DNA of 64,000 nucleotides, taken from contig CACGAC010000006.1 in NCBI GenBank assembly GCA_902571015.1, positions 3,941-67,940 on the forward strand, given 5' to 3'. The notes under the pieces are model-generated. The model was not told the DNA's origin, ran no database searches, and was given only the letters and a program-made list of their open reading frames with translations. Origin of the DNA: an uncultured Pelagibacteraceae bacterium. Its GTDB lineage: Bacteria; Pseudomonadota; Alphaproteobacteria; Pelagibacterales; Pelagibacteraceae. A program made the translations under genes and the position numbers. Shown here piece by piece: positions 15,290 to 51,668 of this stretch; the first letter of the stretch is position 1, and every line of letters starts with the position of its first letter.

Positions 15290-17110
15290 TTATTCAACGG
15301 TTACTGATTTAGCTAAATTTCTAGGCTTATCTATATCAAATCCTTTTTTTAGAGCAGAATAATAGGCTAATTTTTGTAAAGGAATAGTTAAAAGAAAGGG
15401 CAAAAGATCCTCATTAGCACTTTCAACTTCTATTTTTTCCCAAATATTTTCCGAAACCACTTCATCACTACTTTTATTTGTTACTAACAAAACTTTTGCT
15501 CCTCTTGCAATAACTTCCTGCATATTAGAAATAGTTTTTTTATAATAATTGTCTCTTGGTGCTAATACAACAACTGGCATTCCTTCTTCAATAAGAGCAA
15601 GCGGTCCATGTTTCATTTCACCAGCTGGATAGCCTTCAGCATGGATATAAGATAGTTCTTTTAATTTTAATGCACCTTCTAATGCTATTGGGAAAGAAAA
15701 ACCTCTTCCTAAAAACATTGAACCTTTAGCATCATTAAACGTATTAGATATTGTCTGTATCTTATTATCGGTCAACAAAGTCTTTTCTGCTAATTTAGGA
15801 AGAGATTTAAGGTCTTTAAGTTTTTCATTAAATAACTCTTTTTTTAAATCTTTTCTTAAAAATCCTAGTTTTAAAGCTAAAATGTATAATATAAGGATTT
15901 GACCCAGAAAGGCTTTGGTAGATGCAACACCTATCTCAGTCCCACAATGTATTGGTAAAACAAATTTAGAGTCTCTAGCAATCGAACTTTCAATTACATT
16001 TACAACCGCACATGTTTTCATATCATTTTGATTACATAAATCTAATGCTGCATAAGTATCTGCAGTTTCACCAGATTGAGATACAAATATATATAAAGTT
16101 TCTTTTTTAAATCTGTTTTTTCTGTATCTAAACTCTGACGCAATATCTACATTAACATCTAATGAGGTTAACTCTTCGAACCAGTATTTTGCAAGTAGAC
16201 AAGAATGATAAGCTGTTCCACAACCAATTAGAGTTACTGAAGAAATTTCATTTGTTTTCCAAGGAAAATTATAAATATTAATATCATTATTTAATGTATC
16301 TACATATTCATTAATTCCATTTTTTAACGTTGTCGGTTGTTCCTCTATTTCTTTAGCCATGAAATGTTTATAATCACCTTTGTCATATTTTTCATCTTCA
16401 AGAGATAATTCTAAAACTTTTTTATTTATCTTATCTCCATCCTCATTAAAAAATTCAACATGATCTTTTCTTACAATACAGAATTCACCATCATTTAAAT
16501 AAGTAATCTTATTCGTCATTGCTTTAAGTGCATATGAGTCTGAACCTAAATAATTTTCATTTGGACCATACCCCACAGCTAATGGAGATCCTCTTCTTGC
16601 ACCAACAATCAAATCAGGTTGATCTTTAAATATTATACCTAGCGCAAAACTACCATGGAGAGATTTGAGAGTTTTTTTTATTGAATTAACAATATTTTCA
16701 GTTTTTAAATTTTCTGTAATCAAATGTACAATCACTTCAGTATCAGTTTGTGACTTAAATTTATGACCCTTGCTTACCAAAAATTTTTTTAATAAAGTAG
16801 AATTTTCAATTATTCCATTATGAACTACAGAAACATTTTGTGAAGAGTGAGGATGAGCATTAATACTATTTGGCAATCCATGGGTAGCCCAACGAACATG
16901 TCCTATACCAATGGTTCCCTCCATTTTTTGAACTAATAGATTATTTTCAAGATTATCAACTCTGCCTTCAGATTTAACTTCGTTAATTTCATTGTTTGAA
17001 AGCGTTGCTATACCTGCTGAATCATATCCTCTGTATTCTAATTTTTTTAAAGAACTGATAATTGTTGATGAAACAGGTCTATTACTATTTATTCCTATAA
17101 TGCCACACAT
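15290..17110 (-). CDS. glmS: Glutamine--fructose-6-phosphate aminotransferase
   Basis: MCGI start, LEYRGYDSAG, GHVRWATHG, SQSGETADT, PRNLAKSVTVE. Confidence 0.98.
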   Translation of the reverse strand: MCGIIGINSNRPVSSTIISSLKKLEYRGYDSAGIATLSNNEINEVKSEGRVDNLENNLLVQKMEGTIGIGHVRWATHGLPNSINAHPHSSQNVSVVHNGIIENSTLLKKFLVSKGHKFKSQTDTEVIVHLITENLKTENIVNSIKKTLKSLHGSFALGIIFKDQPDLIVGARRGSPLAVGYGPNENYLGSDSYALKAMTNKITYLNDGEFCIVRKDHVEFFNEDGDKINKKVLELSLEDEKYDKGDYKHFMAKEIEEQPTTLKNGINEYVDTLNNDINIYNFPWKTNEISSVTLIGCGTAYHSCLLAKYWFEELTSLDVNVDIASEFRYRKNRFKKETLYIFVSQSGETADTYAALDLCNQNDMKTCAVVNVIESSIARDSKFVLPIHCGTEIGVASTKAFLGQILILYILALKLGFLRKDLKKELFNEKLKDLKSLPKLAEKTLLTDNKIQTISNTFNDAKGSMFLGRGFSFPIALEGALKLKELSYIHAEGYPAGEMKHGPLALIEEGMPVVVLAPRDNYYKKTISNMQEVIARGAKVLLVTNKSSDEVVSENIWEKIEVESANEDLLPFLLTIPLQKLAYYSALKKGFDIDKPRNLAKSVTVE

Positions 17111-17112
17111 AA

Positions 17113-17736
17113 TTATTTAGATTTTCTTTTATAATTTTTTACCTCTAGTTGTTGGCTTCTAGTGAGCGCTAGAGATTTTTTACTTACATTCCTGGTAATT
17201 ACTGATCCTGCTCCAACTATACTATTTTCTGCAAGTGTAATTGGGGCTACTAAAGAAGAGTTAGAGCCAATAAAAACATTATCTTTTATTCTAGTTTTAT
17301 ATTTTTTAATTCCATCATAGTTGCACGTAATTGTCCCCGCTCCAACGTTAACTGATTTACCAATTGAAGTGTCGCCAATATAAGTTAAATGATTTACCTT
17401 AGATTTTTTTCCAAGAGTGCTTTTTTTAATTTCAACAAAATTCCCAATCTTAGACCCCTCTTTTAAAGTAGTGCCAGGTCTTATTCTTGCATATGGACCT
17501 ATTTCAACTTTATTTTCAATTTTACATTTCTCTAAATGACTGAAGGATTTAATAGTAACATTGTTTCCAATTATCACTTTTGATCCAATAACTACATATG
17601 GTTCTATGGTCACATTTTTTCCAATTTTCGTATCTTTAGAAAAATAGATTGTTTCTGGAGCAATCATATTTACTTTAGATTTTAAGAATTTTATTCTCAG
17701 TGAATTTTGAAGTTTATTTATATTTAACTGTTTCAT
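17113..17736 (-). CDS. glmU: Stand-alone GlmU C-terminal domain (glucosamine-1-phosphate N-acetyltransferase); uridyltransferase domain absent
   Basis: Hexapeptide repeats with [35 protein letters not shown]; only 207 aa; upstream of glmS. Confidence 0.85.
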
Positions 17737-17807
17737 ATAGAAAATTACTTACATTAAGTATATATCTTTCTTAATTCACAAAATATTTCTTAAAAATACT
17801 TTTAATT

Positions 17808-18491
17808 ATGAAACAAATTTTTACAATTCTTTTTGATTTGGATGGCACTTTAGTGGATACAGCTCCTGACTTAATGAGAGCCCACAATCATGTTATGAGT
17901 AAATTTGGATATCCAACCAAGTCTACTGAGGAAATAAGAAACTTGGTGGGCCAAGGTGCTGGTGCAATGCTTGGTCGATCTATATGGGGTCAGGCAAAAA
18001 AAGAATTTGGAAAAGTCCAAGATGAAAAAATTAAAAAAGAAATGGTCAAGGAATTTGTAGAGTATTACGGAAATAATATTGTAAATGAAAGTAAATTAAT
18101 TGATGGAGTTAAAGATTTTTTAATATGGTCAAAAGAAAAAAAGATTTCAATGGGTGTTTGCACAAACAAACAAGAACATCTAGCAATTGATCTTTTAAAA
18201 AAAATTGGAATTTATGATTTTTTTGAATATGTGGCGGGTCACAATACATTTGATTATTGTAAACCTGATCCAAGACACTTAACGTCTGTAGTTGAAATTT
18301 TAGATGGGGATCTTAAAAAAACTTTAATGATTGGCGATAGTGAAACAGATGCTAATGCCGCAAAAGCTGCTGGAATTCCAGTTATTTTACTTGAGGATGG
18401 TTATACGGAAAAAAATACAACTGAAATTTACCATAATCACTTAATAAAAGACTTCATTGGTATTGAAAAAATCGTAACAAAATATCTTTAA
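17808..18491 (+). CDS. gph: HAD-IA hydrolase, phosphoglycolate phosphatase-like
   Basis: FDLDGTLVDT, CTNK, KPDP, MIGDSETD. Confidence 0.8.
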   Translation: MKQIFTILFDLDGTLVDTAPDLMRAHNHVMSKFGYPTKSTEEIRNLVGQGAGAMLGRSIWGQAKKEFGKVQDEKIKKEMVKEFVEYYGNNIVNESKLIDGVKDFLIWSKEKKISMGVCTNKQEHLAIDLLKKIGIYDFFEYVAGHNTFDYCKPDPRHLTSVVEILDGDLKKTLMIGDSETDANAAKAAGIPVILLEDGYTEKNTTEIYHNHLIKDFIGIEKIVTKYL

Positions 18492-18542: not shown

Positions 18543-20045
18543 TTGATCATACATAACGTAAAAGTTTTCCCATCTAAAGTTCATTTACCCAAAAAAAAAC
18601 AGCTGGCTTGGAAAATTGCAGAGATTGCAAGTGATAATGCAAAGTTAGATAAAGAAGCAATAGAAATGGTGATTAATAGAATTATTGATAATGCTTCAGT
18701 TGCAATAGCTTCTTTAAATAGACTTCCAGTTATTTCATCCCGAGAGATGGCCCTAAAGCATTTAAGAAAAAATGGTGCAACATTATTTGGAGTTGATAAT
18801 AAATTAAAATTTGATTGTGAATGGGCGGCATGGAGCAACGGAACAGCTGTAAGAGAACTTGATTTTCATGACACATTTTTAGCAGCTGATTACAGTCATC
18901 CTGGTGATAATATTCCTCCCCTTATAAGTGTTGCACAACAAAATAAAAAAAGCGGGTTAGATCTTTTAAGAGGGATAATTACTGCTTATGAAGTGCAAGT
19001 TAATTTAGTTAAAGGAATTTGTTTACATAAACATAAAGTAGACCACATCGCTCACTTAGGACCAAGTGTTGCCGCTGGAATAGGATCGATGTTAAGACTA
19101 AATACAGAAACAATCTATCAAGCTGTTCAACAAGCTCTGCACACAACTATTTCAACAAGACAGTCTAGAAAAGGAGAAATCTCTAGTTGGAAAGCTTATG
19201 CCCCAGCGCATGCTGGTAAACTTGCAATCGAGGCTGTGGATAGAGTTATGCGTGGCGAAGGTGCTCCAAGTCCAATTTATGAAGGTGAAGATAGTGTTAT
19301 CGCACGAATCTTGGATGGAAAAAAAGCTCTATATAGAGTTCCACTTCCAAAAAAAAACGAGACTAAGAAAGCTATTCTTGAAACTTACACAAAAGAATAT
19401 TCTGCCGAATATCAATCTCAAGCATTAATTGATCTTGCAAAAAAACTTAAAAATAAAATATCAAATCTAAATCATATAAAAAAAATTGATATTTATACCA
19501 GTCATCATACTCATTATGTAATTGGTACAGGTGCAAACGATCCTCAAAAAATGGATCCAAATGCAAGTAGAGAAACGTTAGATCATTCAATAATGTATAT
19601 ATTTGCTGTAGCTTTAGAAGATGGTAGTTGGCATCATGTAAAATCTTATTCGAAAGCCAGAGCAAAAAGAAAAAGTACAATTAAGATATGGAGATCAATC
19701 AAAACCCATGAGGATAGAAAATGGACCAAAAGATATCATGACCCAAACCCCAGAAAAAAAGCTTTTGGTGCAAAAGTCATAATTACCCTTAAAAATGGAA
19801 AAAAAATTACCGAAGAACAAGGAGTTGCAGATGCTCATCCTTATGGCTCAAGACCATTCAAGAGAAAAAATTATATAAACAAATTTTTAACACTTACCGA
19901 GAATATTTTAGATAAAAAAGAAATAGAAAGATTTTTAAAAACAGTGCAAAACTTAAGAAAACTAAAGTCAGGTCAATTAGATAGATTGAATATTGTTGTT
20001 AAAAAGAGCAAAATTAAACGAAATTTAAAAAAAGGAATTTTTTAA
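18543..20045 (+). CDS. prpD: 2-methylcitrate dehydratase, MmgE/PrpD family
   Basis: [32 protein letters not shown]; TTG start with AGGAG Shine-Dalgarno. Confidence 0.9.
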
Positions 20046-49788: not shown

Positions 49789-50802
49789 ATGAAAAAAATC
49801 ATAGTTACTGGTGGTTTAGGATTTATAGGAAGTAATCTAATAGAGCTATTATTAAAAAAAAATTTTTTTGTTATTAATATTGATAAATGTACTTATTCAT
49901 CAAATTTCTATAACACTAAAGACTTCATTAAATCTAGAAAATATAAGTTTTTGAAGCTAGATATCGCTAGCAATAAAATTTGTAAAGTATTTGCAAATTA
50001 TAAACCAGTAGGTATTTTTAATTTAGCTGCTGAAACTCATGTAGATAGATCAATAGATAGTCCAGATGATTTTATCAAAAGCAATATTGTGGGTGTATAC
50101 AATTTGCTAGAATGTTTTAAAAATTTTTCAAAAAAAAATAGATCTAAATTAATTCATATTTCTACTGATGAAGTTTATGGTGATATTTCTAAAGGGAGAA
50201 CTGATGAGAAATATGCTTATCAACCAAGCTCACCATATGCTGCTTCTAAAGCTGCCTCTGATCATCTGGTAAGCTCATATATAAGAACTTATAATTTACC
50301 TGCTATGGTAACGAATTGTTCAAATAATTATGGACCAAAGCAACATCCTGAAAAATTAATTCCAAAACTTATTTATAATATTATGAATAATAGACCTCTT
50401 CCAATATACGGCAATGGAACTCATTCTAGAGAATGGATTTACGTAAAAGATCATTGTGAAGCATTAATTAAAGTTTTTCTAAAAGGTAAAGTTGGAAATT
50501 TTTATAATATCGGATCTAACAAAAACTTAAATAATCTTCAAGTTGCTCAAAAACTTTTAAATAATTCAAAAAAAATAATTAAATTGGGTAAAAAGGTAAA
50601 GATCCAGTTTATTAAAGACCGTCCTGGCCATGATATTAGGTACGCATTAAACAGTAACAAAATTAAAAGAGAGCTTAAATGGTATCCAAAAATAAATTTT
50701 TCAAAGGGACTTCAATTAACACTTGATTGGTATTTTGAAAATAAATCATATTATAAATCTCTTTCAAAAAAAGATATTTTAAATAGATTGGGTAAAAAAT
50801 GA
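49789..50802 (+). CDS. rfbB: dTDP-glucose 4,6-dehydratase
   Basis: VTGGLGFIGS, LAAETHVDRSI, STDEVYG, YAASKA, NNYGP, DRPGHDIRY. Confidence 0.96.
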   Translation: MKKIIVTGGLGFIGSNLIELLLKKNFFVINIDKCTYSSNFYNTKDFIKSRKYKFLKLDIASNKICKVFANYKPVGIFNLAAETHVDRSIDSPDDFIKSNIVGVYNLLECFKNFSKKNRSKLIHISTDEVYGDISKGRTDEKYAYQPSSPYAASKAASDHLVSSYIRTYNLPAMVTNCSNNYGPKQHPEKLIPKLIYNIMNNRPLPIYGNGTHSREWIYVKDHCEALIKVFLKGKVGNFYNIGSNKNLNNLQVAQKLLNNSKKIIKLGKKVKIQFIKDRPGHDIRYALNSNKIKRELKWYPKINFSKGLQLTLDWYFENKSYYKSLSKKDILNRLGKK

Positions 50803-51668
50803 TTAAAAAAGGAATTATTTTAGCGGGTGGAATGGGCACTAGAATGAGCCCACTAACTAAGGCAGTAAACAAACAACTATTACCAATATATGATAAGCCT
50901 CTTATTTACTATCCTTTATCAATATTAATGTTAGCAAAAATAAAAGATGTCTTAATTATTGTTAATAAAGGTCAACTAAACCAGTACAAAAAGTTATTTC
51001 CTAATAAGAAAAACTTTGGAGTAAATATTACTTTTAAGGAACAAAGCCAACCTAGAGGTTTGCCAGATGCATTTTTAATAGGAAAAGATTTCATTAAAAA
51101 TTCAGGTGTTGCAATGATTTTGGGGGATAATTTTTTTTATGGACAAAATTTATCTGGACTTCTAGCTAATTGTGTAAAATTAAGAAATGGAGCAAAAATA
51201 GTTCTTCATAGTGTAAAAAATCCGGAGGCATTTGGTGTTGCTAAAATAAATATTAAAAATAAAAAAATCATAAAAATAAAGGAGAAACCAAAAAAATTTA
51301 TATCAAATTATGCAATCACAGGTCTTTATTTTTTTGATAAGAATGTCATAAATTATGCAAAAAACTTAAAACCTTCAAAACGAGGAGAACTTGAAATCAT
51401 TGACTTGATAAATCAATATAAACTTAAGAACAAACTTTCAGCTGAATTTCTTGGAAGAGGTGGTGCTTGGTTAGATACAGGTTCGATAAGTGATTATTAC
51501 AAAACATCAACATTTGTTCAAGCGGTAGAAAATAGACAAGGTTTTAAAATTGCATGTCTCGAGGAAATAGCATTATTAAATAATTGGATTAATAATAAGG
51601 ATATACAAAATGCAATAACGTTTTATGGAAATTGTGAATACTCATCATACCTTAAGAAATTAATCTAA
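50799..51668 (+). CDS. rfbA: Glucose-1-phosphate thymidylyltransferase
   Basis: GIILAGGMGTR, KQLLPIYDKP, LGDNFF, RGELEI, AWLDTG. Confidence 0.95.
   Translation: MIKKGIILAGGMGTRMSPLTKAVNKQLLPIYDKPLIYYPLSILMLAKIKDVLIIVNKGQLNQYKKLFPNKKNFGVNITFKEQSQPRGLPDAFLIGKDFIKNSGVAMILGDNFFYGQNLSGLLANCVKLRNGAKIVLHSVKNPEAFGVAKINIKNKKIIKIKEKPKKFISNYAITGLYFFDKNVINYAKNLKPSKRGELEIIDLINQYKLKNKLSAEFLGRGGAWLDTGSISDYYKTSTFVQAVENRQGFKIACLEEIALLNNWINNKDIQNAITFYGNCEYSSYLKKLI

Follow-up and report, generated by a model that had tools for sequence, protein, structure and literature searches.

GlmU is regarded as a bifunctional enzyme that is universal and essential in bacteria, and as an antibiotic target; UDP-GlcNAc feeds both peptidoglycan and lipid A, with MurA, MurG and LpxA all needing it. 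The window that we analyzed, a 64,000-nucleotide stretch from an uncultured member of the Pelagibacteraceae, a Pelagibacter of the SAR11 group (G000:C6:3941-67940; the whole assembly, G000, comprises 1.12 Mb in 22 contigs and is 92.75% complete), carries an ORF that resembles only the second half of this enzyme. This raises the question of whether such a gene is genuine and, if so, of how UDP-GlcNAc is made in this organism.

The ORF (17113..17736, minus strand) starts with an ATG codon and encodes a 207 amino acid protein made up of a left-handed beta-helix and part of the linker helix, that is, a stand-alone GlmU acetyltransferase domain according to Pfam, NCBIfam and structure alignments. 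Pfam analysis of the protein returned hexapeptide-repeat families only, with no NTP_transferase match, and 11 NCBIfam GlmU models match it, each by its C-terminal part only. The best of these models, NF010933 for alphaproteobacterial GlmU, is matched over positions 241-435 of 453 (E 3.5e-90), and TIGR01173 over positions 251-450 of 452. Scores fall below the curated cut-offs, with 302.8 bits against an equivalog cut-off of 505 for NF010933 and 242.8 bits against 366.85 for a second GlmU model. In solved GlmU structures, residues 269-452 align with the short protein (E 1.5e-51), and both the NHLTYIGD and the CNYDG motifs are present. The structure alignment also revealed that all 12 acetyltransferase-site residues are kept: R86, E102, K104, H116, Y119 and N130 of the short protein correspond to R333, E349, K351, H363, Y366 and N377 in E. 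coli numbering, and A133, N139, K145, S158, A176 and R193 to A380, N386, K392, S405, A423 and R440. From the structural literature on GlmU, we take these 12 positions to form the acetyl-CoA and GlcN-1-P site. The initial annotation, which had described an acetyltransferase domain alone, starting at the linker helix and with intact motifs, is borne out by these alignments. Identical or near-identical proteins are named "DapH/DapD/GlmU-related protein" by NCBI and bifunctional GlmU by JGI. Three longer database proteins (P0003, P0004 and P0005), of 267-333 aa and encoded on contigs of 1.6-2.7 kb, score 447-530 bits against 428 for the self-match of the query and seem to be assembly products in which short GlmU was duplicated or made chimeric.

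Compared with bifunctional GlmU (1hv9 of E. coli, 2v0h of H. influenzae and 3fww of Y. pestis), the SAR11 protein retains the C-terminal beta-helix and its site residues but lacks the N-terminal uridyltransferase domain of ~230 aa with its LxxGxGTxM loop. In an alignment with full-length relatives, the short proteins start partway along the helical linker arm that joins both domains of GlmU. Two engineered constructs containing only the C-terminal part of E. coli GlmU (4aa7, 231 aa, and 3twd, 222 aa) align with the short protein over the full length and have nearly the same size and boundary. The truncation in SAR11, in contrast, arose in nature, is old and has become fixed, and no N-terminal fragment to match it was found. 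Such C-terminal E. coli constructs fold and reportedly keep acetyltransferase activity (truncation studies of Pompeo et al., 2001), and both GlmU activities can be supplied on separate polypeptides. The 207 amino acid protein is predicted to be a monofunctional glucosamine-1-phosphate N-acetyltransferase.

The genomic neighborhood leaves no place for a second half. Downstream, after a gap of 2 nt, lies glmS (15290..17110, minus strand), encoding a 606 amino acid glutamine-fructose-6-phosphate aminotransferase with a GATase and two SIS domains. The two genes are probably co-transcribed, and the glmU-glmS junction measures between -1 and +3 nt in every lineage examined. Upstream, a divergent intergenic region of 71 nt (17737..17807), too small for a remnant of the GlmU N-terminal domain, separates short glmU from its conserved divergent neighbor, which encodes a 227 amino acid Gph-like HAD phosphatase (17808..18491, plus strand); the earlier statement that only about 70 nt lie between the two genes, with no room for a hidden N-terminal half, agrees with this. 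Designating the genus of the window as g1, other genera of the same family (f1) as g5-g10 and the sister family as f2, we found an identical order of gph (divergent), glmU, glmS and DAHP synthase in lineages with short and with full-length GlmU, the first three genes being common to 21 loci from 10 genera. At most loci ~70 nt separate gph from glmU; the spacer is longer in g6 (131-145 nt) and shorter in g10 (24 nt), and the full-length lineages have 39-80 nt.

The phosphatase itself finds its best NCBIfam match in phosphoglycolate phosphatase (169 bits; cut-off 225) and scores 82.6 bits on the MupP model. It occupies the same position beside glmU as a predicted MupP of Caulobacter, where CCNA_02390 adjoins the GlmU gene CCNA_02389 (PMC13046382). 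We dropped its designation as a proven MupP, for which the support consists of this position and a weak model score. On the far side of the phosphatase gene, the window and loci L046-L054 show a further difference between genera: in g1, prpD (18543-20045 in the window) separates the gph-like gene from prpB, whereas in the g5, g7, g8 and g9 loci prpB comes next after gph, the gap is too short for prpD and no match to it was found.

The distribution of the two forms was determined in 301 genomes of Pelagibacterales with at least 85% completeness. A GlmU profile search of G000 (92.75% complete) returned the short C-terminal match together with weak matches to other nucleotidyltransferases and beta-helix proteins, and found neither a full-length glmU nor a separate N-terminal half; the same two forms were looked for in the closed genomes of g1 and not found. 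All 209 matching g1 genomes, out of 231 searched, have the short form only (one match each, E ~1e-62 to 1e-95), 38 of them being single-contig genomes by hand count of the distribution table, and the same applies to all matching genomes of g6, g8, g9 and g10. Proteins above the GlmU family cut-off occur only in g5, g7 and f2 (27 genomes; a further one, G200, has a gene with an apparent frameshift at L048 4360-4640). The short genes encode 201-216 aa (240 aa in one g8 genome if counted from the first start), against 431-448 aa for the full-length genes, and no split N-terminal half was found in g6, g8 or g9. The tally includes two unpublished genomes, G099 (g1) and G294 (g6), of which G099 also enters the MurU-like, GalU-like and RmlA tallies below, and a third, G355, is the source of one sequence each in the class-level GalU set and in the MurU set, both of 30 (L201 and L228); without them counts drop by one (e.g., 29/29) and conclusions are unaffected.

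One candidate for a split GlmU half, a 190 amino acid protein with a weak match to positions 4-131 (E ~1e-17) in some g1 genomes, was rejected. Such weak "GlmU N-terminal" matches in g1 are in fact MocA proteins, encoded next to cox and xdhC genes. A MocA-type molybdenum-cofactor cytidylyltransferase is encoded behind coxSLM-like and xdhC genes in G013 (L036 4874-5443) and was not found in G000. Outside Pelagibacterales, most of the top 150 cluster representatives measure 430-470 aa, and the stand-alone forms among them lie on contigs of at most 1.6 kb or belong to clusters that also contain full-length members. The only short match on a long contig (P0214) is of sphingomonad origin, a group in which 77 of 80 loci encode a full-length protein. 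The short forms that we checked outside SAR11 are fragments or miscalls. No publication on GlmU in SAR11 bacteria, and none mentioning a GlmU truncation there, turned up in our literature search.

These data bear on whether a faulty assembly, recent pseudogenization or a miscalled start could account for the short gene. Its unusual length is the one feature that would fit such an origin; five genera and the 38 single-contig genomes nonetheless share its synteny, its 60-95% sequence identity across lineages points to purifying selection, and the upstream space is limited to 71 nt, so that an artefact is extremely improbable. Neither of the two observations that the initial annotation had named as able to overturn its proposal was made: close relatives carry the short form, and no full-length glmU was found elsewhere in G000 or in the closed genomes of the genus.

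By position, short glmU is orthologous to the full-length glmU of g5, g7 and f2, which holds the same gph/glmU/glmS synteny, and the uridyltransferase-coding part of the gene was therefore deleted in place, once or twice. Some 230 N-terminal codons would have been lost in this way in an ancestor of most SAR11 lineages. In a tree built from the GlmU C-domain and Gph, g1 groups with g8, g9 and g10 (support 88/92) and the placement of g6, g5 and g7 is left open; the best tree implies two losses, and the AU test does not reject one loss only (p = 0.145).

Since the uridyltransferase half is missing from GlmU, another enzyme must make UDP-GlcNAc. The preceding step appears to be in place: GlmM is encoded in the same genome (G000:C7:5892-7199), so that short GlmU can receive GlcN-1-P and should make GlcNAc-1-P. 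To find a partner, we carried out the genome search for NTP_transferase proteins that had been suggested for this locus, which identified eight proteins of the nucleotidyltransferase fold in G000: RmlA, ManC, GalU-like, RfbF-like, MurU-like, KdsB, IspDF and NeuA-like. Closed relatives have the same small set, and no further universal protein of the NTP_transferase fold was found in the closed genomes. Among genomes of the order with at least 95% completeness, profile searches detected the MurU-like protein in 121 of 121 and the GalU-like protein in 113 of 116 genomes of f1 and in none of four from f2, while RmlA occurs in 51 of the 96 genomes of g1. The four f2 genomes (G025-G028), with full-length GlmU, have no GalU match at E <= 1e-20 and all have RmlA. 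The core sugar-1-phosphate nucleotidyltransferases of these genomes are the MurU-like and GalU-like proteins only.

RmlA, a glucose-1-phosphate thymidylyltransferase encoded within the window (50799..51665, plus strand; TIGR01207, 345.8 bits), has the required fold and had been put forward by the initial annotation as the type of enzyme that could substitute. Its promiscuity is known, and an engineered RmlA produced dTDP-GlcNAc (PMC12773781). However, RmlA was not found in 45 of the 96 g1 genomes, many of which are single-contig, and an essential step cannot generally depend on an enzyme missing from about half of complete Pelagibacter genomes. With RmlA set aside as a general substitute by this patchy distribution, the MurU-like and GalU-like proteins remain; that RmlA or an accessory nucleotidyltransferase of the surface-glycan islands (ManC, RfbF or NeuA-like) supplies the activity is very improbable.

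A different solution would be an enzyme of another fold that has escaped recognition, or a reversed order of reactions in which GlcN-1-P is uridylylated first and UDP-GlcN is then acetylated. In favor of either, use of GlcNAc-1-P by both core nucleotidyltransferases is putative, and the GalU signature described below is absent from g6. On the other hand, a eukaryote-type UAP (PF01704) was not found in the window's own genome, the closed genomes offered no additional universal candidate, and the retention of all phosphate-binding and catalytic residues for GlcN-1-P acetylation argues against a change of acceptor. We consider these two solutions together improbable, though less so than a role for RmlA. 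With no full-length or N-terminal glmU found and the short gene present in close relatives, the split pathway proposed initially, in which a uridyltransferase of the same fold would act in trans, is the most economical reading of the sequence data. Uridylyl transfer to UDP-GlcNAc would then fall to one of the two core nucleotidyltransferases.

The first of these is the MurU-like protein (G000:C1:95446-96135), whose best family and structure matches are to MurU, although it reaches 99.1 bits on NF045761 against a cut-off of 250; other alphaproteobacterial homologues likewise stay below this cut-off. The start of its gene is overlapped by the gene of a 312 amino acid AmgK-like kinase, with tsaE alongside. 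The adjacent pair recalls the AmgK-MurU shunt of Pseudomonas and of Caulobacter, where the neighboring AmgK and MurU genes CCNA_03649/50 belong to a MurU shunt that has been shown to work (PMC13046382), but the scores of the SAR11 proteins fall well short of the equivalog cut-offs for MurU and AmgK. The AmgK of Pseudomonas phosphorylates both MurNAc and GlcNAc at C1 (PMC5371407). AnmK (PF03702) is encoded in four closed relatives (e.g., G013:C1:309933-311030) and was not found in G000 (92.75% complete).

It is conceivable that the MurU-like protein uridylylates GlcNAc-1-P as well as MurNAc-1-P, which would make the GlmU N-domain dispensable. MurNAc-1-P is 3-O-lactyl-GlcNAc-1-P, so a MurU-like enzyme would already have an acetamido pocket; the protein is present throughout the order, adjoins the AmgK-like kinase and would account for all lineages at once, including g6, whose GalU-like protein lacks the signature. 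Against this, it is equally present where GlmU is full-length, where nothing sets it apart from its counterparts in the short lineages: no short-lineage-specific change was found at the positions that do not vary among 30 other alphaproteobacterial families, and a comparison of its conservation, and of that of the GalU-like protein, between short and long GlmU lineages gave no clear shift. It also evolves fast, with identities of 48-97% within the genus and of 59% between G000 and G013, compared with 77-81% for GlmU-C, the GalU-like protein and GlmS, and shows no tightening in short lineages. The AnmK and the phosphatase at the MupP position in relatives mean that an ordinary recycling role explains its presence. 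Furthermore, P. putida MurU is said not to use GlcNAc-1-P, and we know of no description of a role for MurU in de novo UDP-GlcNAc synthesis. Taken over all, we regard this solution as rather unlikely.

The second core enzyme is the GalU-like protein (G000:C2:19530-20342; TIGR01099), which scores 255.7 bits against a cut-off of 326.8, compared with 279-364 bits for 47 other alphaproteobacterial families. It shares with GalU (TIGR01099, and the UGP enzymes of K. pneumoniae and P. aeruginosa, PMC11796359) the fold, the catalytic residues and the galU-ugd gene pair. Alignments with solved GalU structures show that the catalytic core is kept (the G-x-G-T-R loop, K25/E26, Q103, D131 and E189-K190), and ugd lies directly downstream in 21 of 21 loci examined, a constant pairing that fits an ordinary UDP-glucose role.

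What distinguishes it from GalU, besides the score under the cut-off, are six substituted residues, all at sites with little or no variation among 30 other alphaproteobacterial families. Five replace a residue found in 30 of 30 families, namely G32 (D, motif VVDKP), T109 (L) and D111 (H, both in motif GLGHA), W168 (Y, motif RYG) and H228 (Q, motif EIQLTD); at the sixth, Y252, 28 of 30 families have R (motif R[FY]DCG). In a profile alignment, the GTGDA of the GalU-like protein lies opposite LGTG[DH]A of GlmU, so T109 corresponds to the Thr that is invariant in eight full-length SAR11 GlmUs (Thr82 in E. coli numbering), which lies at the GlcNAc site. At the equivalent position of RmlA, Leu89 has been used, together with the ExxxTD loop, to change sugar specificity. 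In K. pneumoniae UGP, the backbones of G114 and G179 bind uracil and glucose, respectively (PMC11796359), and by motif these residues would be equivalent to G108 and G169 of the GalU-like protein, next to T109 and W168. A T-G-G sequence also occurs in the RfbF-like protein of the same genome, and Thr at the position of Thr82 is thus not exclusive to acetamido-sugar enzymes.

The substitutions G32, T109, W168 and H228 are confined to the clade formed by g1, g8, g9 and g10. In g5, whose GlmU is full-length, the GalU-like protein retains L, H, Q and Y, and in g7 (full-length GlmU) and g6 (short GlmU) it retains L, Q and Y. As g6 combines a short GlmU with a GalU-like protein without the signature, the signature, striking as it is and shared by the main truncated clade, tracks the truncation imperfectly; it amounts to a single phylogenetic event, and its coincidence with the truncation may be fortuitous. 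Several apparent frameshifts were noted in these families (L040 1380-1390; L041 1520-1535; L042; L043): in GalU of G078, G097, G128 and G004 and in the MurU-like protein of G123 and G177. Long A runs (A8, A10) stand at the GalU frame breaks in the two loci that were read (G078 and G097), in otherwise complete genomes. The apparent frameshifts in GalU, MurU-like and GlmU are probably sequencing errors, with slippage at A runs possible, and so cannot be used as evidence from natural knock-outs.

Weighing both proteins, we tentatively favor the GalU-like over the MurU-like protein as the candidate UDP-GlcNAc-forming enzyme on account of its pocket-loop substitutions, including the GlmU-like Thr; it would serve both Glc-1-P and GlcNAc-1-P. 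A little more cautiously still, we suggest that in the main SAR11 clade, comprising Pelagibacter and three related genera, the remodeled GalU-like protein could be a dual UDP-glucose/UDP-GlcNAc pyrophosphorylase that replaces the uridyltransferase domain of GlmU. That the uridyltransferase is something other than the GalU-like or the MurU-like protein alone, or is both of them, we hold to be unlikely. The explanation as a whole has in our estimate a probability of about 0.7: GlmU would have lost a domain in place, the remaining acetyltransferase, transcribed with glmS, would make GlcNAc-1-P together with GlmM, and a core nucleotidyltransferase would uridylylate this product in trans.

Few organisms in the ocean are as abundant as SAR11 bacteria. 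If the uridyltransferase half of GlmU is missing from most of them, metabolic reconstructions that name this gene "bifunctional GlmU", as JGI does, are wrong by one reaction, and one essential SAR11 enzyme is still to be assigned. Our inventory narrows the search for this uridyltransferase to two small proteins, and the substitutions in the GalU-like protein provide a concrete hypothesis for sugar specificity in this fold. If the GalU-like protein does make UDP-GlcNAc, this would represent the paralogous displacement of an essential, drug-targeted domain in the most abundant bacteria of the ocean, and would single out a few exchanges that switch sugar specificity, namely Leu to Thr in GLGHA, Tyr to Trp, Gln to His and Asp to Gly.
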